This document shows positions 397 through 59,108 of a stretch of 64,000 nucleotides of DNA, one piece after another. How positions within the stretch are numbered: the first letter of the stretch is position 1; every line of letters starts with the position of its first letter. A program made the position numbers and the translations under genes. The stretch lies in the UHGV virus genome UHGV-1353844. One strand, 5' to 3'. The notes beneath the pieces are model-generated. The model had not been told where the DNA came from, searched no databases, and saw nothing but the letters and a program-made list of their open reading frames with translations. This stretch comes from a virus.

Positions 397-729
397 TTAG
401 TGTGGTTCTGGTTCGACATAAATTTCCCCAAACACGTATGCGGTTCCGGCTTCATTCGTCGGTTTAGCAACACACCACATCCATTCTTTGGTTTCAGGTT
501 TTTGCCAGGACAACAAAAGAACACCGTCACAAATTTCAGAGGTATCCACTTCTGGATGATACAACATAAATTCGTTGTCGTTGCCATCCATTACAACAAA
601 CTGCCCTTCTTCGATTCTTTCGAATTTCGCGACGCCTACCGCGATCGGTGCGTCATCAACAGTAAACGACACGTCACGTTTTGGCAAATCACGGTGAATA
701 GCACTTAACCACATCAGATTGTTCCTCAA
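397..729 (-). CDS. hypothetical protein (110 aa)
   Basis: ORF track; GAGGA RBS 5 nt upstream of start at 729. Confidence 0.55.
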   Translation of the reverse strand: MRNNLMWLSAIHRDLPKRDVSFTVDDAPIAVGVAKFERIEEGQFVVMDGNDNEFMLYHPEVDTSEICDGVLLLSWQKPETKEWMWCVAKPTNEAGTAYVFGEIYVEPEPH

Positions 730-781
730 TTAATTTTGTTTACTTGTGCATAACTACGGCTATACGCGTAAAATAAATACA

Positions 782-805
782 CCCTCTCTCCAAACGGAGA
801 GAGGG
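782..805 (-). terminator. intrinsic terminator-like hairpin
   Basis: 10-bp stem CCCTCTCTCC/GGAGAGAGGG; A-rich on plus upstream gives U-tract on minus. Confidence 0.55.
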
Positions 806-810
806 GCAGC

Positions 811-1317
811 TTACAGCAGATTCTCTTCGCGATCATCTACCAAGATAGACGTAATGACATAACGCGCTAAGCGACTACGCGCTTCTTCAGTTTCTTCGTC
901 GGACGGTAATGGCTCACCTGCTGGCGCACACAACGTCAGTCCTGATTCACGAAGCTGTTCCGTGTACTCTTCTACGGCAGTTTCAAACGTACCACGAATA
1001 CCTGCGACAGTGTCCATAATCTCATCAGTTGGGATGATGGATTCTTTCAACACAGCATGGGCATCAGTAGGTTCGACGGAGTCTAAGTTCAGTTCGACCA
1101 GCAACGCTTTCTTCGCCAGACAGTCAGTGATAAAACACGACAGAGCTTTTTCAAACTCATCTAAACTGAATTCGGTGTCGTCAGAGGCACCGGTGATGAG
1201 CTGACCGTAACGGTTAAACAGCTCTTTACAACGTGTTTCATAATCAGCATCGATATCACGAACACCGAGGTCGAAATCGTGTTGTTCGAGCTGATTAAAA
1301 TCCAGAGTCTCACTCAT
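811..1317 (-). CDS. highly acidic hypothetical protein (168 aa; ~41 D/E vs ~14 K/R), candidate DNA-mimic
   Basis: ORF track; GGAG RBS; composition counted from translation; same operon as dam. Confidence 0.55.
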   Translation of the reverse strand: MSETLDFNQLEQHDFDLGVRDIDADYETRCKELFNRYGQLITGASDDTEFSLDEFEKALSCFITDCLAKKALLVELNLDSVEPTDAHAVLKESIIPTDEIMDTVAGIRGTFETAVEEYTEQLRESGLTLCAPAGEPLPSDEETEEARSRLARYVITSILVDDREENLL

Positions 1318-1356
1318 TATTAAAGTCTCCAGTTAAGAGGTCATATTACCTGCTGA

Positions 1357-1584
1357 CTAGAGGGCCAGCGTTAACCCCGTGTGGGTTTGTACTGAACCAA
1401 CACCGTCACGCGCTTTCGCTTTTGCGATAAGTTTGTCAATCACACGTTGGTGACTGCGCGTAATAACTTTACCCGGATAACCGATAATGAGCGCATTTTC
1501 GCTGTTGATTACCGCCGAGAATTCGTTATCACCTGCGACGTAAACAATCTGTTTGTTTTTGGTTACAATACGTTTGATTTCCAT
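1357..1584 (-). CDS. hypothetical protein (75 aa)
   Basis: ORF track; AAGGA RBS 5 nt upstream. Confidence 0.45.
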   Translation of the reverse strand: MEIKRIVTKNKQIVYVAGDNEFSAVINSENALIIGYPGKVITRSHQRVIDKLIAKAKARDGVGSVQTHTGLTLAL

Positions 1585-1593
1585 TCATCATCC

Positions 1594-2367
1594 TTAAAAG
1601 ATAAAGTGGCCGGTTAATGGTTCTACCTCAACTCCACCCATAGACGGTGGGGCTGTGTATGGAAACGTGAGGCGAACAGTTGCGCCTTTCAGATAAGCAA
1701 TACGGAAATACGTGGTTAGCAGTGCGTTTCCGTAAGTACAGTCGTTATAGAAAAAACCTTCGGTGGCAAACGTCTTTTCATTGATTTTCGAATAGACTAA
1801 GATACCTTCAACCTTACCGTCTTTACGACAACACAGCCCTTCTGCCGCACCTACGGCTAACAACCCTAAACAGTGCGTGTCGAGGCTGACATTAACAACC
1901 TTAGGAATCGTAAACGTCTCTTCTAACGTTAGGGATTCAACGTCGACCACGTCAGGTAAGTCAGTACGTACTTCTGGCTTCTCAGTAATCGTAAGGTCAT
2001 AATCGATAGACGTTGGTTGCATACCCAAAAACGTCATTAACTGATCACGACGTTTTAGGTCATTAGCAGGGTAGGTAACGTCAAACATCTTCACGTTTAA
2101 CAGACGTTTGAGTTGGGCGAAGTTGATGTTCTTCTTCGCAAACACAACGATTGCGGACATATAGAAAATCTTACCGTCTGCACGCCCTGAAAAGATGCCC
2201 TGTAATTGGTTAGTATTCGAAAGGATGATAAAGGTAGGGTCTTCAGATTCCCGAATGATTTCCTTTTCCATTAACCCTTTGCGTACACGGGTTAACGAAA
2301 CCATTTTACCTTCTACACCAATCGCTAAATGGTCATTACGATAATCGTGGATATCCACTATACGCAT
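1594..2367 (-). CDS. hypothetical protein (257 aa)
   Basis: ORF track; start overlaps dam stop at 2367 (translational coupling). Confidence 0.6.
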   Translation of the reverse strand: MRIVDIHDYRNDHLAIGVEGKMVSLTRVRKGLMEKEIIRESEDPTFIILSNTNQLQGIFSGRADGKIFYMSAIVVFAKKNINFAQLKRLLNVKMFDVTYPANDLKRRDQLMTFLGMQPTSIDYDLTITEKPEVRTDLPDVVDVESLTLEETFTIPKVVNVSLDTHCLGLLAVGAAEGLCCRKDGKVEGILVYSKINEKTFATEGFFYNDCTYGNALLTTYFRIAYLKGATVRLTFPYTAPPSMGGVEVEPLTGHFIF

Positions 2368-3182
2368 TAGAGCACTCCTAACAATTCCGTTACCGTTTTA
2401 CGAGCAGCACCTGACGCACCCATGTATCGCCCTACTTCTACAGAACGCCATTCGAACCCGTAATAAATCTCACGCGTTAGTAACGTATCTGCATTGGACA
2501 ACACAACGCTATTCCCCTTCTCAACCTGCTTAAACAGCGCTCTGGCGAGTTCTCGATGGTCAGCCTGGGAAAACTCCTTCCGATGGTATTGGGCGTGTTT
2601 AGCGGTCTCTGAGAGCGGTATATAAGGTGGGTCTGCGTAAATCACGCTGTCTTCCGGTGTACGCTCTAAAACTGTTCGGAAATCTTCACAAACAATTTCT
2701 AAGTATTCCGGTTCTTGACAACGTTTAGCCCAACCACGAATCTCTTCTAACGGGTAATACACACCGTTAGGATAGCGACCAAACGGAACGTTAAAACCAC
2801 CGCTGCCGTTGTAACGACACATCCCGTTAAAACCGTGACGCATTAAATACAGAAACATTGCAGCACGGTCTAACGGAGCCATATCCGTTTCGCGATTAAA
2901 CAGTTCTCGTCTCTCCATATACTTAATACAATCGTTACCGTCTTCGAATAGCGGTTTCGACTTTAAGATAAGTTCTTCAGGTTGGTCTTTCGCCACGTTC
3001 AGCAACTGAATTAAGTCAGGGTTAGAGTCAGCAAGAATGTAACGTTTATAACGTGTGTTCAAAAACACCGACCCTGCACCAACAAACGGTTCAACGAATG
3101 TTGTACGTTCAGGTAAGACTTGTAATAAGGTGTCGATAATCCGCGATTTGCCACCCATCCACTTTATAATTGGTTTATGCAT
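2367..3182 (-). CDS. dam: DNA adenine methyltransferase (Dam-like, orphan)
   Basis: Motif I FVEPFVGAGSV and catalytic DPPY (YADPPYIPL) in translation; no adjacent restriction endonuclease. Confidence 0.85.
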   Translation of the reverse strand: MHKPIIKWMGGKSRIIDTLLQVLPERTTFVEPFVGAGSVFLNTRYKRYILADSNPDLIQLLNVAKDQPEELILKSKPLFEDGNDCIKYMERRELFNRETDMAPLDRAAMFLYLMRHGFNGMCRYNGSGGFNVPFGRYPNGVYYPLEEIRGWAKRCQEPEYLEIVCEDFRTVLERTPEDSVIYADPPYIPLSETAKHAQYHRKEFSQADHRELARALFKQVEKGNSVVLSNADTLLTREIYYGFEWRSVEVGRYMGASGAARKTVTELLGVL

Positions 3183-4161
3183 TAATTCCGCCTTGTAACG
3201 ATGACATTTCGTCGCCTAACACTAACTCGACGCGGTTTTTCCGACGCTCCCAACTGACGACATCGTCGTCGCGCACTAAAACAAATTCGTACTCGTAGGG
3301 ACGGAATTTAAACAAATCTACAGCCAGGTGTCTAAATGCTGGGTTGTTATTGTAACACCCTATTTCTAATGGTGCTGCTGTTGTCGATGCAATCTGTAAA
3401 GCACGGTACAACAACGCACGCCCAATCCCACGGCCCCGGTGTGATTCACTTACCGCAATGGCTTTTAGTTCGCACTCGCTAAGATTGCGTGATTTAACTT
3501 GCACCACACCCACAATGTCGTTACCGTCCATCCAAACGTAAGTGTAGTGATTGACGTGACGCACTAACTCCACCAGCGTTTCAACTTGCGGCATTATTTG
3601 TCGAGAACGCGTCACAGGGTCAGCATTGATGTTTTCAACAACGCTAGTGCCAAACAACGTCATGAGCTGTTCACGTTGTGCTCTGGTTAAGTCTTTATAG
3701 AAGTCGCCGGAGACGTTCTTCACGTTCGTCGGTAAAGTGACATCCAGTAGCTTACGCGTACCTAAACGATATGCTGTGTGGGTATGTCTAAACCCTAAAT
3801 CGTTAAGCTCAGCAATTTCTTCCACACCTCTGGCAATTCGGTTAAGGTACGTAAACCCAGTATAGTCAAGTACCAATAGAAGGCTCAGTTTGTTCAAACA
3901 CCCAGGTACAATTTCATGCATATACAAGCAGTGTAACGTTGGGTCACCGTAAATGTGTTTTGTGATGATAAACCCTTGGATTGTTTTTCCTTTTTGTAAA
4001 GAGAACGTATTCAGCTCAGTATTGCACAGTGCTTCACGAATCGCCGCACCGTTAGGCCCCGTTAAACATGCCTGAAGCTGAGGATTGCGAATATCTCTAC
4101 GGGTTAAGCGTCCTACGGTTAAATCAGAAGAGGTTCTTTCTATCGTTTTACGATATACCAT
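3175..4161 (-). CDS. GNAT-family acetyltransferase domain protein (328 aa)
   Basis: C-terminal half has acetyl-CoA-binding-like motif AIAVSESHRGRGIGRALL; overlaps dam start by 8 nt; terminator downstream. Confidence 0.55.
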   Translation of the reverse strand: MVYRKTIERTSSDLTVGRLTRRDIRNPQLQACLTGPNGAAIREALCNTELNTFSLQKGKTIQGFIITKHIYGDPTLHCLYMHEIVPGCLNKLSLLLVLDYTGFTYLNRIARGVEEIAELNDLGFRHTHTAYRLGTRKLLDVTLPTNVKNVSGDFYKDLTRAQREQLMTLFGTSVVENINADPVTRSRQIMPQVETLVELVRHVNHYTYVWMDGNDIVGVVQVKSRNLSECELKAIAVSESHRGRGIGRALLYRALQIASTTAAPLEIGCYNNNPAFRHLAVDLFKFRPYEYEFVLVRDDDVVSWERRKNRVELVLGDEMSSLQGGINA

Positions 4162-4218
4162 TTTAATACTCCTTATCGGCTTTCCTCACAACAAAAGAAA
4201 AAGTTGTAAAAAGAAAAA

Positions 4219-4234
4219 GGGAGCCGAAGCTCCC
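4219..4234 (-). terminator. intrinsic terminator (UUCG loop on minus transcript)
   Basis: GGGAGC-cgaa-GCTCCC flanked by A-run; downstream of gene ending at 4248. Confidence 0.6.
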
Positions 4235-4247
4235 TGTTTGTTACAAA

Positions 4248-4931
4248 CTACCAAAGCTTAGAACTAGTGAATGCTGCACTAGAATCTGGAACTTTGCCTC
4301 TTAATTTATCACGCAGAAGTTCAAAGAACATGCGATGATAAGCGTAATATTTTTCCAACCGATTGTATTCAATCAGGTTTTCTAACGCCGGATGAAAGCG
4401 AAGATGTTTGTTAGGACTGGTAAGGGAAAACGGAACGACTTCTTCATTAAGCAAGATAGGATACTTAACACTATCGCCCATTTCAGCATACAACATTTTG
4501 GTGTCGAAAACGAAATAAGCCGTTGGGTGAAAGCCTAACCACGTTGAAGCCTCAACAAAGAAGTCAGTCAATTTACTAGCAATCTGGCTGATCATCTTAT
4601 CGTCTGATTTAAACATCAGGCGCAGGAAAATCTCGCTAATGACTGAACCCGTAAGCAGTTTTTCTTTGTGGATACCTGGCACGACTGCCAGTACCTCATC
4701 GTCGAGTCGACAGACAAGCGTGTACAGGTCGAATACCGGGTAATGGTAAATATCGATCGTTAAACTCGCACGCGGAGTGTAACTTAAGATTTTATCCCCG
4801 TGTATTTCTGTGGCGGGCGGCATAAGCGCAAGCTTCTTGCTAGGCCCACCCTGTTTAACTTCTGCTTCCTTAGTATCAATCGGTTTTTCTACAGTTTCTT
4901 TAACTTCAGTTTTCTTAGTTCTCGGTGCCAT
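4248..4931 (-). CDS. hypothetical protein (227 aa), downstream of early-promoter-like element
   Basis: ORF track; GAGGA RBS; conserved promoter element 4956-5020 upstream; terminator 4219-4234 downstream. Confidence 0.65.
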   Translation of the reverse strand: MAPRTKKTEVKETVEKPIDTKEAEVKQGGPSKKLALMPPATEIHGDKILSYTPRASLTIDIYHYPVFDLYTLVCRLDDEVLAVVPGIHKEKLLTGSVISEIFLRLMFKSDDKMISQIASKLTDFFVEASTWLGFHPTAYFVFDTKMLYAEMGDSVKYPILLNEEVVPFSLTSPNKHLRFHPALENLIEYNRLEKYYAYHRMFFELLRDKLRGKVPDSSAAFTSSKLW

Positions 4932-4955
4932 GATATTTAATCCTCATCTGTAGAA

Positions 4956-5020
4956 CAAGTCGTAAAGAGATTACGATGTAATCTCACTAAGGTAATATCT
5001 ATCTGAGAAAAAATTAAATA
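4956..5020 (-). promoter_or_regulatory. conserved early-promoter-like element, copy 1
   Basis: ~65-bp block near-identical to 40923-40990; minus-strand core AGATATTAC; palindrome GATTACGATGTAATC; ~27 bp upstream of start at 4931. Confidence 0.55.
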
Positions 5021-5022
5021 AC

Positions 5023-5042
5023 CCCCTACCCGAAGGTAGGGG
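5023..5042 (-). terminator. intrinsic terminator (UUCG loop)
   Basis: CCCCTACC-cgaa-GGTAGGGG; A-rich on plus upstream; downstream of tmk. Confidence 0.6.
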
Positions 5043-5049
5043 TATGTGA

Positions 5050-5673
5050 TTAATTCTCTAAAATACAAGCAACGATTTCAGCCGCTTTTAACCGGTAATC
5101 GTCGTCTTGCTTCACGGGTAATAAATGGTGCAGACAACCACCTTCAGTGAGGATGTGGTGGGCAAAGCGGTAGTGGTCACGTAACGCTTCCCAGCTTTGG
5201 TTATCTTTTAAATACTTAACGGTAAGGACTTCATCGTCCCAATTCTTACCTTGTTCTTCTACCCGTTTCTTAAAGCGTGCTACTGCGCCGTCGTAATCCA
5301 CATCTGTCCAAACGTACAAATCTGGTGCGTGGAAATGACGCGTTAGCTTACGTCGGAAAACTTCGTCTTTACCGTCGACGCCCTGGTAAACGACTGTAGA
5401 GGGACAGAACCTGTCGAAAATAACAACATCGTAATCGTCAACAACATGGTCTAACGTGTGAAGGAAATCGTCGCACATCGCTTCGGCAATTTTTGCTTTT
5501 GCTGCGGACTGAATGACTAAACTGCGTGCACGGATACCCGCCTCGGTCTCCGTCGTAGGGTGATTACGGATGCAGACCTTTAACCCCGCAGATTCCAGCA
5601 TACCTTTTACTATTTTGCACAACGTCGATTTCCCAGAAAAGTCAGGGCCATCAATAGACACTGTCTTAAGCAT
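5050..5673 (-). CDS. tmk: thymidylate kinase (dTMP kinase)
   Basis: P-loop DGPDFSGKST and lid motif FDRFCPSTVVYQ (DR-Y/F...YQ); start moved from track GTG (5694) to ATG at M8 with AAGG RBS. Confidence 0.75.
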   Translation of the reverse strand: MLKTVSIDGPDFSGKSTLCKIVKGMLESAGLKVCIRNHPTTETEAGIRARSLVIQSAAKAKIAEAMCDDFLHTLDHVVDDYDVVIFDRFCPSTVVYQGVDGKDEVFRRKLTRHFHAPDLYVWTDVDYDGAVARFKKRVEEQGKNWDDEVLTVKYLKDNQSWEALRDHYRFAHHILTEGGCLHHLLPVKQDDDYRLKAAEIVACILEN

Positions 5674-5784
5674 TATCGTTTTACCTTTACGCACAAAAAT
5701 TTAAACCGATACTTCTTTATTCCATACCGGCGTTCACATAATAGCTATTGGTTGTAATAAATTTTAGGATAAAAAAGAAACCCG

Positions 5785-5804
5785 CCCCTACCGATTGGTA
5801 GGGG
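5785..5804 (-). terminator. intrinsic terminator
   Basis: CCCCTACC-gatt-GGTAGGGG preceded by AAAAAAGAAA. Confidence 0.55.
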
Positions 5805-13181: not shown

Positions 13182-13241
13182 GATAAGTCTCCATGTTCAA
13201 GTCTCACAGTATGATCAAAAATTGTAAAATAAAAAGAAGAA

Positions 13242-13265
13242 AACCTCTACCCGAAGGTAGAGGTT
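13242..13265 (-). terminator. intrinsic terminator (UUCG loop)
   Basis: AACCTCTACC-cgaa-GGTAGAGGTT flanked by A/T runs. Confidence 0.6.
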
Positions 13266-13269
13266 GGTT

Positions 13270-21184: not shown

Positions 21185-21240
21185 TTCCTCATTCCCTCAC
21201 TATAGTGGGCGGCTATAATAAATTGGGGAATAAAAAAGAA

Positions 21241-21264
21241 GGAGGAGAGCCGAAGCTCTCCTTG
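21241..21264 (-). terminator. intrinsic terminator (UUCG loop)
   Basis: GGAGAGC-cgaa-GCTCTCC preceded by AAAAAAGAAGGA. Confidence 0.55.
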
Positions 21265-21272
21265 TGTGGTGA

Positions 21273-56579: not shown

Positions 56580-57881
56580 TTAGGTGATATGGATCAACGG
56601 ATCGTATTCTTGAACGACGGTTTCTTTACCGTGCATTGCGGCCATTGCCACGGACATAACGTTAGAGAACGCTGACGAAATATCCGCCGCGATAGCGCGA
56701 GGTTCTTCACCTTTCGCTTCGGAGGAGCACGCAGTGCAGCAGTCGATGTGGCCGTATTGACATAAGATGGGTCGGCGTAGACGCACAACTTTCCCTAGCT
56801 GACTATTCAAAAACTCTTCCGTCAGGGAGGTTAACTTCCCATTAACCATCGCGTTCATGCCAACGTAACGTTTTACGTTGTCTTTTGTGATAACCACAGG
56901 GTGCGTGAGTTTCGTCCCACAGTCACCTGCAACGATTCGGTGGTTCTGGAAAATCATCTGGATGATACGTACCTGTTCCCCACCTTTCGCGGTTTCTGCA
57001 CCACGCGAGAACGAACCTTCACGAATAGAGTTAAACTTCGCGACCAGATTATCCATTCCCGCTTTATCGACTTCCACCAATGCGTTAGGAATTAACGTAT
57101 AGTTACCCCCTTCCTGGAAAGACGATTCAATCCCGTACATCAGCATCAACTTACGACGACGCATTCGCGATTTCGGTGAGTTATAGAACTCGATAGATTG
57201 GTCACCCGACAACCACTGTTTATCCAGTTCGTCCAGTGCTTTTTCTATCTTAACAATCACTGCTGGGTCGTCTAACTCGTCCTTATGCTTTAACAGCAAC
57301 GCATCACGTATTTTATACGCATCAGGATGCACTGTAAGGCTTCTAAGTGTACCTGTTGGTGCAATACCAGCGGTTAGTGGTGCAAGCTCGTGTAAGCCGC
57401 TTACAAAGCGTTCTATCATGCTCGGACGAATAGCACCTTCGTTCTCAGGTTCATCGGTCTCGTGATCCAAACAACGGCGGTGCATCTCTTTTCGATACTC
57501 TAACGGGTTTTGTGAAATACCCATATACGGCAAGCGTGTACCAAACGCATACCAGATAACAACCCAGTTAAAGATATAACGTCCTACGGTAGTAGGAATC
57601 GGTCCTTCTAATCCTGGGTAGTCATCGACTTTCAACTCAAACTGTTCTTCAGGAATAAACAGTTCTTGGTCTTTTACACCATCAGTAATGGGCTGCCAAA
57701 CGCCTTTCCCATCTTCTACCGCGTAGTAGTGCGGCATTCCGTCAATATACGTAATATCGAACGCTTCGGGTTCTTCACGATTCGACGGGAACACTGACAT
57801 GTTGAATATTGCAATACGCCACACTAAACGACGCCAGGCTTCGGCTTTACACGCCGCCACCAGAAACTCAAATCTCGTCAT
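56580..57881 (-). CDS. hypothetical protein (433 aa)
   Basis: ORF track. Confidence 0.6.
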   Translation of the reverse strand: MTRFEFLVAACKAEAWRRLVWRIAIFNMSVFPSNREEPEAFDITYIDGMPHYYAVEDGKGVWQPITDGVKDQELFIPEEQFELKVDDYPGLEGPIPTTVGRYIFNWVVIWYAFGTRLPYMGISQNPLEYRKEMHRRCLDHETDEPENEGAIRPSMIERFVSGLHELAPLTAGIAPTGTLRSLTVHPDAYKIRDALLLKHKDELDDPAVIVKIEKALDELDKQWLSGDQSIEFYNSPKSRMRRRKLMLMYGIESSFQEGGNYTLIPNALVEVDKAGMDNLVAKFNSIREGSFSRGAETAKGGEQVRIIQMIFQNHRIVAGDCGTKLTHPVVITKDNVKRYVGMNAMVNGKLTSLTEEFLNSQLGKVVRLRRPILCQYGHIDCCTACSSEAKGEEPRAIAADISSAFSNVMSVAMAAMHGKETVVQEYDPLIHIT

Positions 57882-58719
57882 TGTCTTCCTCCGCTACCTT
57901 ATAAATCTCCTTCAAGCTTTCCAGAGCAGGTTGCAAGATAGGAATAGGTTTTAACCCTTCGTTGTTGAGCTTCTCCAGGTTCTCTGATAACGCACCATAC
58001 GCATCTTCGTAATCCTCGTTATCGATAATCGATAAACCCACTGCATACATTTCCAACAGCTCGGCTTCCGTGTAGTCTTCAACATCGAAGACCAGCGACT
58101 GCTGAACTACGGTCAAATCAGGCAGGTCTGGTAAGTTAAGGAATACGAACGCTGATGGGTTTTGAGGATATAGACGAAGGTAATCAGCGATACGTGACAA
58201 ACGTCTGTCGTTACCTGCCGCTAATTGTTCGTCTACGGTCACAGAAGACAGGTAGTTTCTCATCACGGTCATTACGCGAGGAGACACCCGAACAACCAAA
58301 TCTTCGAAATGGATATTCTCATCACCGTAAACATAACGACAGATACTTTCCAGAATGTATTCTGGCGTCTCGCCAGACATCACAATACCGTAAAGCGTAT
58401 CGGTGTCTTCAAACTCTTCAAACTTGGAAGTAATACCGTCCAGAATACGTACGGTCTCTTTGGGTTTATGGTAAACTTCCTGGGGATTTAACGCTATCCC
58501 TAAACGGTTACCTAACGCTACCGCACACTTAACGATAATGCCTTCTAATCGAACCGTTTCGTCTGCCGGGTCAGAAGACGGTTGCCAGTACACATCACTT
58601 AACGCAACGTCGTATCCGTAGTCCATGCAAAGCGTGACTAAATCCAGAAACGGTGCAGCACGTTCCTCCGAACGATTGACGGTAAGAACGGCGGCGTAAT
58701 CTGTATAAATGTCAATCAT
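57868..58719 (-). CDS. hypothetical protein (~283 aa)
   Basis: Track ORF (start 58803) shortened to M29, because the track N-terminus would run through terminator hairpin 58772-58795. Confidence 0.5.
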   Translation of the reverse strand: MIDIYTDYAAVLTVNRSEERAAPFLDLVTLCMDYGYDVALSDVYWQPSSDPADETVRLEGIIVKCAVALGNRLGIALNPQEVYHKPKETVRILDGITSKFEEFEDTDTLYGIVMSGETPEYILESICRYVYGDENIHFEDLVVRVSPRVMTVMRNYLSSVTVDEQLAAGNDRRLSRIADYLRLYPQNPSAFVFLNLPDLPDLTVVQQSLVFDVEDYTEAELLEMYAVGLSIIDNEDYEDAYGALSENLEKLNNEGLKPIPILQPALESLKEIYKVAEEDNDEI

Positions 58720-58771
58720 AGCCTTTTCCAATACAAGGGGTTCATACCAAAGCAAAAAAAAAGAAAAAGCT

Positions 58772-58795
58772 AAGGGAGTCTTAATAGACTCCCTT
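58772..58795 (-). terminator. intrinsic terminator
   Basis: AAGGGAGTC-ttaata-GACTCCCTT preceded by AAAAAAAAAGAAAAAG. Confidence 0.55.
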
Positions 58796-58799
58796 AAAT

Positions 58800-59108
58800 T
58801 CAACCTTTCAACTTAAGCTCTTTCTCAAGATTTTGCAGTTCTGGATCACTGCCAGCAACATCGTTCATGATTTTCTTAATCGACGCTTTACGACGATTAA
58901 GCACACGGAGCATCATCATAATCTCCCAACGAGGACGATTAAGCCACTCGTCAAACGAGAGTCGATAATGTTCATTTATCTGCTCACGCAAATAAACTTC
59001 CATCCAGATTTCGTGTAAGCTCCCGTATTCCGGGTTTTCGAAATCTGACAAACCGACGTGCTTTGAACCGGTGTCCAACCCTATCGACAAATCGTAGGCA
59101 CCTAACAA
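58800..59108 (-). CDS. hypothetical protein (102 aa)
   Basis: ORF track; terminator hairpin immediately downstream. Confidence 0.5.
   Translation of the reverse strand: MLGAYDLSIGLDTGSKHVGLSDFENPEYGSLHEIWMEVYLREQINEHYRLSFDEWLNRPRWEIMMMLRVLNRRKASIKKIMNDVAGSDPELQNLEKELKLKG

Follow-up and report, generated by a model that had tools for sequence, protein, structure and literature searches.

Does this phage genome carry an anti-restriction module built from a Dam-like DNA methyltransferase and a strongly acidic protein? Such a pairing had been proposed in a sequence-only reading of positions 811 to 3,182 of the window, that is, of the whole 64,000-nucleotide stretch of virus genome UHGV-1353844 that we analysed. 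To answer this question, we consider the extent and relatives of the gene block, then the methyltransferase, the acidic protein and the neighbouring proteins.

A five-gene block shared with SPN3US-like phages

The four open reading frames proposed for this region were all confirmed on the minus strand: 2367-3182 (271 aa), 1594-2367 (257 aa), 1357-1584 (75 aa) and 811-1317 (168 aa). NCBI PGAP calls identical ORFs in an E. coli 'plasmid' record whose identity to the region is 97%. The 5' limit of the unit, however, is not at 3182, where it had been placed. A gene for a 328-aa GNAT acetyltransferase (3175-4161, minus strand; Pfam Acetyltransf_1, E 5.4e-12; phrog_8663) comes first and runs 8 nt past the start of Dam. 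The 257-aa gene, in turn, shares 1 nt of its start with the stop codon of Dam (TAATG).

Two hairpins flank these five genes (GNAT, Dam, 257-aa, 75-aa and acidic). On the downstream side, an intrinsic-terminator-like hairpin with a T-rich tail (782-805, minus strand; RNA fold -22.6 kcal/mol, z -5.9) lies 6 nt past the stop codon of the acidic gene and forms the 3' boundary of the unit. On the upstream side, a terminator-like UUCG-loop hairpin with a T-run (4218-4235, minus strand; RNA fold -13.6 kcal/mol, z -3.7) terminates the preceding gene, ORF227. The promoter is presumed to lie in the stretch of 56 nt (4162-4217) that separates this hairpin from the GNAT start. A promoter motif scan found no enrichment of sigma-70-like sites, and neither the phiKZ-early-like GATATATTAC motif nor a shared TTTTACAAYTTTT...TGTGAG element was above chance. 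We propose that the five genes form one transcript between the two hairpin terminators, and that the first three are translationally coupled.

A megablast search of the phage collection with this region found no match, meaning that nothing there reaches roughly 85% identity at the DNA level, and thus protein-level searches were needed. The block corresponds to gp104-gp109 of SPN3US (GNAT, Dam, gp106, gp107, gp108, gp109), which it matches in gene order, strand and both terminator boundaries. Two SPN3US genes have no counterpart in the window: gp107 and, upstream, the HTH gene gp101. Identities to the SPN3US proteins are 67.5% for Dam (gp105), 43% for the acidic protein (gp109), 42% for the 75-aa protein (gp108), 30% for the GNAT protein (gp104) and 24-26% for the 257-aa protein (gp106). 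The same block is present in Erwinia phages Machina and pEa_SNUABM_6 (Machinavirus), Wellington (Wellingtonvirus), Asesino and phiEaH2. The hairpin boundaries recur in two other genera; a hairpin follows the acidic-gene homologue at the equivalent position in SPN3US and pEa_SNUABM_6, and equivalent hairpins lie upstream of SPN3US gp104 and pEa_SNUABM_6 gene 120. The five-gene block is a conserved, already annotated feature of SPN3US-like phages. We propose that it is the counterpart of gp104-gp109 in an SPN3US-like jumbo phage that is not yet represented. We place the probability of our best explanation, which takes in the block, Dam and the acidic protein, at about 0.6; the decoy role proposed below for the acidic protein has a clearly lower probability of its own.

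A stand-alone Dam methyltransferase

The 271-aa protein (2367-3182, minus strand) had been described as a Dam-like methyltransferase without a partner endonuclease, and our results bear this out. It matches the Pfam D12 family MethyltransfD12 (PF02086) with an E-value of 1.3e-57 and 195.9 bits (cut-off 22), NCBIfam TIGR00571 'dam' with 254.7 bits (cut-off 114.85), and the E. coli Dam structure 2g1p with an E-value of 1.1e-63 over residues 3-269. The SAM-binding motif I (FxGxG) reads FVGAG at residues 33-37 and the catalytic motif IV, DPPY, is found at residues 184-187. In the 2g1p alignment, E. coli Dam residues K9, Y119, N120, L122, R124, P134 and Y138, whose roles in GATC contact are given in PMC4417163, align with K7, F118, N119, M121, R123, P133 and Y137 of the phage protein. 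Five of the seven GATC-recognition residues are identical and the other two are conservative replacements (Y119F and L122M). From these matches, the protein is probably a GATC-specific Dam-family N6-adenine methyltransferase, and the assignment of specificity rests on conserved contact residues that include the two conservative substitutions. Pfam and NCBIfam searches revealed no nuclease domain in any of the nine neighbouring ORFs. By these searches, Dam is solitary, without a cognate nuclease, and does not belong to a type II restriction-modification system.

The phage enzyme resembles E. coli Dam (2g1p) in its D12-class fold, its FxGxG and DPPY motifs and its identical contact residues K, N, R, P and Y. 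This likeness would extend to T4, T2 and P1, which encode further phage orphan Dam methylases. The phage enzyme differs from E. coli Dam in falling under the NCBIfam equivalog cut-off (255.6 compared with 441 bits) and in carrying a phenylalanine in place of the intercalating Tyr119 and a methionine in place of Leu122. It also differs in setting: the phage that encodes it has relatives that replicate in a protein nucleus, and the enzyme would then need to enter this nucleus before it could act. In sum, there is nothing exceptional about this Dam, a stand-alone DNA methylase that probably acts on GATC.

We propose that the phage Dam acts on the GATC sites in the phage's own DNA, and that their methylation would serve as a solitary form of self-protection against GATC-directed nucleases, such as DpnII/MboI-type enzymes and MutH. 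As for other phage-encoded Dam enzymes, such protection would add to the strong avoidance of GATC in the genome. The window contains 113 GATC sites compared with 293 expected, a ratio of 0.39, which makes GATC the second-lowest of the 256 tetramers. The ratio in the Dam-less Cronobacter phage CR5 is 0.17. A search for GATC clusters that might mark an origin or a pac-like site found none.

SPN3US belongs to the nucleus-forming phiKZ-like phages. Formation of the nucleus by SPN3US is covered in a review (PMC13282480), and the shell of nucleus-forming phages largely excludes DNA-targeting nucleases, according to PMC9365700. This exclusion reduces the need for a protective methylase and for a DNA mimic, and it leaves the selective advantage of Dam without an explanation. 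A Dam enzyme carried by phages whose DNA is kept away from host enzymes, probably including host Dam, raises the question of whether GATC methylation serves protection, mismatch-repair evasion, packaging or regulation.

The acidic protein and what it may do

The last gene of the unit (811-1317, minus strand; phrog_8221) encodes a 168-aa polyanionic protein that is predicted to be all-alpha. Its position two genes downstream of Dam was confirmed from the ORF order, and its net charge, previously given as about -27, was computed as -26 (40 D/E and 14 K/R; D+E 23.8%; pI 4.10). At -15.5 per 100 residues, its charge is the most negative among the 65 non-overlapping ORFs in the window, for which the median is -1.1. 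The protein itself matched no Pfam family at E<=0.1 and no NCBIfam family, and searches of PDB sequences, with the protein alone and with a profile, returned chance-level matches only. When the 15 family members were searched against Pfam, GatC (E 3e-4, 3/15 members) and NAP (E 0.017, 2/15 members) were below threshold, and both matches are probably driven by composition.

The family is rare: only 11 representatives were found among 1.84 billion (1.84e9) proteins. Relatives occur in 62 phage records, all from SPN3US-like enterobacterial jumbo phages and all annotated as hypothetical, and a look-up of the exact sequence among contigs returned no record. The members of this phage clade that have been studied, SPN3US and Asesino, form a nucleus. 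A genetic system is available for SPN3US (PMC5105663). Literature searches covering SPN3US gp109, Dam and transcriptomes turned up no functional data.

What the family conserves is charge. The 14 full-length members, at 31-59% identity, have net charges of -20 to -26, and one 122-aa fragment has a net charge of -14. Acidic residues reach 80% or more in only 15 columns; the 27-40 acidic residues of each sequence are distributed across 85 columns, and every 20-residue segment carries a charge of -1 to -5. As judged from this alignment, selection keeps the bulk negative charge of the family, evenly along the chain. Additionally, two motifs are strongly conserved in the family, DFxQLxQHDFDL at the N-terminus and LVDDREE at the C-terminus. 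An AF2 model of the protein (pLDDT 83) contains predicted helices at residues 26-42, 52-75, 83-91, 98-125 and 140-160.

Because the conserved feature is bulk negative charge with few fixed acidic columns, our best guess, which is a tentative one, is that the protein acts as a polyanionic decoy, similar to a DNA or RNA mimic and outside the known mimic families. Such a decoy would occupy the nucleic-acid-binding surface of some host or phage protein. The protein has the small size, high D+E content and low pI of DNA/RNA mimics, and its family maintains negative charge across homologues, as is typical of these mimics, which form a functional class and not a homologous family. The evidence that suggests a decoy is composition and charge conservation, and the pTM of the model is only 0.58. 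If the decoy hypothesis is correct, the protein would represent a new mimic fold, and nucleus-forming phages would still require cytoplasmic counter-defence.

It is rather unlikely, in our estimation, that the 168-aa family is a new, structurally unrelated mimic family that occurs only in enterobacterial SPN3US-like phages and acts in the cytoplasm against a host defence or a nucleoid protein. This mimic would target a host DNA- or RNA-binding protein where the shell gives no cover, either at the pre-nucleus stage or on exported mRNA.

Acidic helical proteins often serve as chaperones, scaffolds or adaptors. Instead of targeting the host, the acidic protein might act on a basic phage protein as its partner, chaperone or antagonist, with the 75-aa protein and a DNA-binding or packaged protein as candidates, although we give this a low probability. 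The 75-aa protein (1357-1584, minus strand; phrog_7896, E 2.1e-21) has a pI of 9.9 and a net charge of +5. Like the 257-aa protein it had been listed as an unknown; this holds for the 75-aa protein, which has homologues in SPN3US (gp108) and CR5 (CR5_102, 42%) and no Pfam, NCBIfam or PDB match, but not for the 257-aa protein, which has a GNAT fold. The 75-aa and acidic genes lie side by side in SPN3US, pEa_SNUABM_6 and Wellington as they do in the window, they are the only two of the five genes that are detectable in CR5, and the two conserved terminal motifs of the acidic family resemble protein-protein contact sites. However, about 9 kb of inserted genes separate the two in CR5, and a partner with a charge of +5 would not call for a charge of -26.

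The original suggestion was that the acidic protein is a DNA mimic like Ocr or ArdA and could form an anti-restriction module together with Dam. In this model it would be directed against type I or BREX-type restriction, and with Dam it would guard injected DNA. We consider this improbable. The mimic-like composition stands: T7 Ocr (117 aa) has a computed net charge of -28 and a pI of 4.05, so that both proteins are small and highly negative with a pI of about 4, and the acidic protein is likewise predicted to be compact and helical, with its charge conserved across the family. Homology to Ocr or ArdA does not stand. At E<=1, the Pfam matches of all 15 family members included no anti-restriction family, neither Ocr (PF08684) nor ArdA (PF07275). 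An hhalign comparison of the family with T7 Ocr gave a probability of 0.9% over 11 columns, and the family profile matched nothing among PDB sequences below an E-value of 0.048, and no ArdA. The fold check that had been suggested was also negative, as the predicted fold matches neither that of Ocr nor the elongated fold of ArdA. By sequence, profile and predicted fold, the protein is a homologue of neither. It also differs from Ocr in its lower charge density (-15.5 compared with -23.9 per 100 residues) and from both Ocr and ArdA in that its gene ends an internal operon and is not the first to enter the cell. We know of no anti-restriction activity of the acidic protein.

A functional tie between the acidic protein and Dam could be seen in the terminator-bounded operon that their genes share in 53 of the 62 phage records. 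The similarity pattern of the acidic gene is unlike that of the flanking genes, which would fit exchange or a fast-evolving host-interaction gene. The acidic protein shares more identity with Machinavirus (56-59%) than with SPN3US, and its closest relatives are not those of Dam. On the other hand, nine of the 62 records contain the acidic protein without a close Dam, and the Derbicusvirus-like clade keeps the acidic gene and lacks Dam. In CR5 the acidic gene is present (42%) and a genome-wide search at E<=1e-2 found no Dam. Thus, the acidic protein is independent of Dam, because it persists in Dam-less relatives, and its retention in CR5 argues against the proposed anti-restriction module. None of the 62 family records has been functionally characterised, and the protein shell that this phage family places around its replicating DNA excludes restriction enzymes, as stated in PMC9365700. 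Nothing that we computed supports Dam and the acidic protein as a dedicated two-part anti-restriction module. For the acidic protein itself, an anti-restriction function is at most a lead, which none of our computations shows.

The GNAT-fold neighbours of Dam

The first protein of the unit, ORF328, is a GNAT protein (PF00583, 46.4 bits compared with a cut-off of 20.7) with an acetyl-CoA loop, RGRGIG, at residues 242-247 of its C-terminal domain. Its best matches are acetyltransferases of the RimI and MshD types, which act on proteins or small molecules. The 257-aa protein, ORF257 (1594-2367, minus strand), is a distant homologue of SPN3US gp106. Alongside its GNAT fold, it has no Pfam match and no Q/RxxGxG/A acetyl-CoA loop motif, and in these two respects it differs from GNAT acetyltransferases, including tandem-GNAT proteins such as PDB 2wpw and MshD. 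An hhalign comparison gave a weak link between ORF257 and the ORF328 family (E 2e-4, probability 47%). The C-terminal half of ORF257 was modelled at a pLDDT of about 30, from a shallow alignment. ORF257 is probably a degenerate tandem GNAT, and it may be non-catalytic.

Phage Mu Mom is an acyltransferase-fold enzyme with a GNAT-like fold. In all relatives, two to three GNAT-fold paralogues adjoin the DNA methylase near a thymidylate kinase, so one could imagine a DNA-modification cluster in which these proteins modify DNA or nucleotides as Mom does. We regard this as very improbable, since the acetyl-CoA loop of ORF328 is a standard one, its best matches are of the RimI/MshD type, and CR5 carries a GNAT array without Dam. 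Least probable of all is that the phage carries a type II restriction-modification system in which the 257-aa protein is the cognate GATC endonuclease of Dam. In favour of this, the 257-aa gene is coupled to Dam by the overlap at the Dam stop, DpnII/MboI-class enzymes are similar to the protein in size and restriction endonucleases are often missed by sequence detection, but we rejected this reading on the GNAT fold of the protein.

Two genes past the 3' end of the unit, the window ORF at 26-295 is a homologue of SPN3US gp112, which has been reported as a non-virion protein (PMC5105663).

An operon of five genes in a jumbo phage

The acidic gene (811-1317, 168 aa) is the last of five minus-strand genes, following ORF328 (3175-4161, 328 aa), which encodes a GNAT, the Dam gene ORF271 (2367-3182, 271 aa), ORF257 (1594-2367, 257 aa) and a 75-aa ORF (1357-1584). 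The 328-aa and 271-aa genes overlap by 8 nt, the Dam stop codon overlaps the start codon of the 257-aa gene by one base (TAATG), and the other gaps are 9 and 39 nt. Terminator-like hairpins with T-tails flank the block at 4218-4235 (-13.6 kcal/mol, z -3.7) and 782-805 (-22.6 kcal/mol, z -5.9), and no further such hairpin was found between them. Thus, the four genes of the sequence-only reading are real, but the unit has five, as it includes the 328-aa ORF. Homologous blocks in SPN3US and Erwinia phage pEa_SNUABM_6 have hairpins at the same two positions; the operon boundaries are kept across genera. A GC-rich hairpin followed by a T-run, often with a UUCG-type tetraloop, opens nearly every gap between minus-strand genes in the window (e.g. 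782-805, 4218-4235, 5023-5042, 5785-5804, 13182-13269 and 21185-21272). The motif TTTTACAAYTTTT...YTGTGAGR, common to gaps 4162-4247 and 13182-13269, was not above chance.

Part of a jumbo-phage genome, the window codes for jumbo-phage families that include a phiKZ-type major head protein (phrog_3231, E 6e-279) and a DnaB-like helicase. Of its 67 ORFs, 59 are on the minus strand. The five-gene block is the orthologue of the already annotated SPN3US-type operon. The region (window 700-4300) is 97% identical to the E. coli 98232 'plasmid' NZ_CP173450.1 (examined as locus L011, 55672-67273), where NCBI PGAP calls the same five genes. That 221,873-bp circular record (p98232-contig_4), from a urinary isolate of E. 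coli, evidently represents the genome of a jumbo phage deposited as a plasmid. Contigs of 187-226 kb labelled Salmonella Dublin and Shigella sonnei carry near-identical proteins. At megablast level no relative of the region was found in the phage collection, where this lineage is not yet represented.

The window lacks two SPN3US genes. The SPN3US block contains gp107 (4877-5689 of locus L001), also found in pEa_SNUABM_6 and Wellington, whereas in the window the gp106-like gene is followed directly by the gp108-like gene (site 1585-1593). In SPN3US (gp101, L001 695-1060) and NZ_CP173450.1 (8255-8614 of locus L011), an XRE/HTH regulator gene separates thymidylate kinase from the 227-aa ORF; the window has only a 118-bp spacer there (4932-5049).

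Dam and GATC avoidance

The 271-aa protein matches Pfam PF02086 (E 1.3e-57) and TIGR00571 'dam' (254.7 bits; cut-off 114.85), aligns end to end with the E. coli Dam structure 2g1p (E 1.1e-63), and has the motifs FVGAG at residue 33 and DPPY at residue 184. These matches establish its family membership; as a Dam, the enzyme is ordinary. Seven residues read GATC in E. coli Dam (K9, Y119, N120, L122, R124, P134 and Y138; PMC4417163); five are identical here and two are conservative replacements (F118, M121). As the motifs are kept and the GATC-reading residues are identical or conservatively replaced, the enzyme is likely to be GATC-specific.

Pfam and NCBIfam profile searches found no nuclease domain in the Dam neighbours. 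The sole plausible hidden endonuclease was ORF257, which is translationally coupled to Dam, and here the evidence points to a GNAT fold: an hhalign link, colinear, joins it to the GNAT family next to it (E 2e-4, probability 47%), and CR5_099 and CR5_100, two genes of the counterpart array downstream of thymidylate kinase in Cronobacter phage CR5, are annotated GNATs that pass Pfam. The acetyl-CoA loop motif is absent from ORF257, which may be a degenerate GNAT paralogue. Thus, the claim of a methyltransferase lacking a partner endonuclease is supported. We infer that this solitary Dam would methylate the phage's own GATC sites, to the phage's benefit.

The window holds 113 GATC sites against 293 expected under a second-order model (ratio 0.39), the second-lowest ratio among 256 tetramers after CTAG. 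GATC is therefore depleted despite the phage's own Dam, and no clustering of the remaining sites was found. The 224-kb CR5 genome contains no Dam (tblastn, E<=1e-2) and is more depleted (0.17). Therefore, GATC avoidance characterises the clade as a whole, and most members carry Dam in addition. The avoidance fits selection by GATC-directed nucleases of some kind.

A family that conserves charge

The acidic protein has 40 D/E and 14 K/R residues, giving a net charge of -26 (about -27 had been claimed) and a pI of 4.10, and is the most acidic among 65 window ORFs. It belongs to phrog_8221, annotated as function unknown, and is homologous to SPN3US gp109 (43% identity). When 1.84 billion representative proteins were scanned exhaustively with HMMER, only 11 relatives came up; tblastn found the gene in 62 phage records, all annotated hypothetical and all jumbo phages of Erwinia, Salmonella, Escherichia, Cronobacter and Proteus. 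Net charge stays between -20 and -26 in full-length members at 31-59% identity. The 27-40 acidic residues of each protein are distributed across 85 alignment columns, only 15 of which are at least 80% acidic. Each 20-residue segment carries -1 to -5. Judged from these alignments, charge is what the family conserves; DFxQLxQHDFDL at the N-terminus and LVDDREE at the C-terminus are strongly conserved too. AlphaFold, given a 15-sequence alignment, predicts an all-alpha protein (pLDDT 83, pTM 0.58).

Membership of the Ocr or ArdA families is refuted. The protein has no match in Pfam or NCBIfam, neither family is among the Pfam hits of any of its 15 family members, hhalign against T7 Ocr gives a probability of 0.9%, the family profile finds nothing below E 0.048 among PDB sequences, and Foldseek against viral models returned only its own family. 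Because all these tests are negative, we place the protein outside both families; it is a genuine, uncharacterised lead.

Two other window ORFs are strongly acidic. ORF 397-729 is homologous to SPN3US gp110 (68% identity) and has a net charge of -11 over its 110 aa; it opens the next unit after terminator 782-805 and probably starts at ATG 714 (105 aa), as PGAP calls in the relative. ORF 57868-58803 (311 aa) has a net charge of -33.

Linkage and possible roles

Of the 62 records, 53 carry both Dam and the acidic gene in one operon, separated by about 3 kb, as the proposed two-part anti-restriction module would have it. However, nine records (CR5, EarlPhillipIV, Derbicus, Phobos, pEa_SNUABM_38) carry the acidic gene without a close Dam. 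The order in CR5 is tmk, GNAT1, GNAT2, CR5_101 and CR5_102, the last being the 75-aa homologue; the acidic gene, CR5_119, follows after an insert of about 9 kb of other genes. CR5 genes 114-118 (L005 3342-6949) lie in that insert, which includes thymidylate synthase, a 448-aa protein with a Walker-A-like GPPGTGKS motif read by eye rather than matched by profile, and a gene that carries the annotation 'similar to Arn.3'.

The nearest relatives are also discordant. Dam is closest to phiEaH2 (73%), Asesino (71%) and SPN3US (67.5%; Machina-type 49%), and the acidic protein to Machinavirus (56-59%; Asesino 46%, SPN3US 43%, phiEaH2 41%). Thymidylate kinase (5050-5694) and ORF110 (397-729) are closest to SPN3US among SPN3US, pEa_SNUABM_6 and Wellington. 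At the acidic gene, the discordance suggests either recombination or a change of rate specific to the lineage. As the gene is kept in Dam-less records and its nearest relatives differ, it is clade-wide rather than Dam-dependent, which argues against an obligate module. The observation (a Dam with no nuclease and, in the same operon, an acidic protein) is confirmed, and its interpretation is upheld in part: the orphan Dam is supported, Ocr/ArdA membership is refuted and an obligate module is disfavoured.

We propose, at a probability of roughly 30%, that the acidic protein is a polyanionic decoy that would occupy a nucleic-acid-binding surface, the best-supported inference. Less probably, it would serve a basic phage protein as partner or chaperone; one candidate is the adjacent 75-aa protein (pI 9.9), whose CR5 homologue lies about 9 kb from the acidic gene. 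The specific anti-type-I mimic first proposed is more doubtful still, having the acidity in its favour and the failed Ocr/ArdA searches against it. SPN3US and Asesino, relatives carrying the operon, form a phage nucleus (PMC13282480), and PMC9365700 describes the shell of such phages as excluding host nucleases. On that account, a DNA-protective role for Dam and the acidic protein has a lower prior, except before the shell forms. The literature searched contained no functional mention of SPN3US gp105-gp109; the nearby gp112, whose homologue is window ORF 26-295, is reported to be non-virion (PMC5105663).
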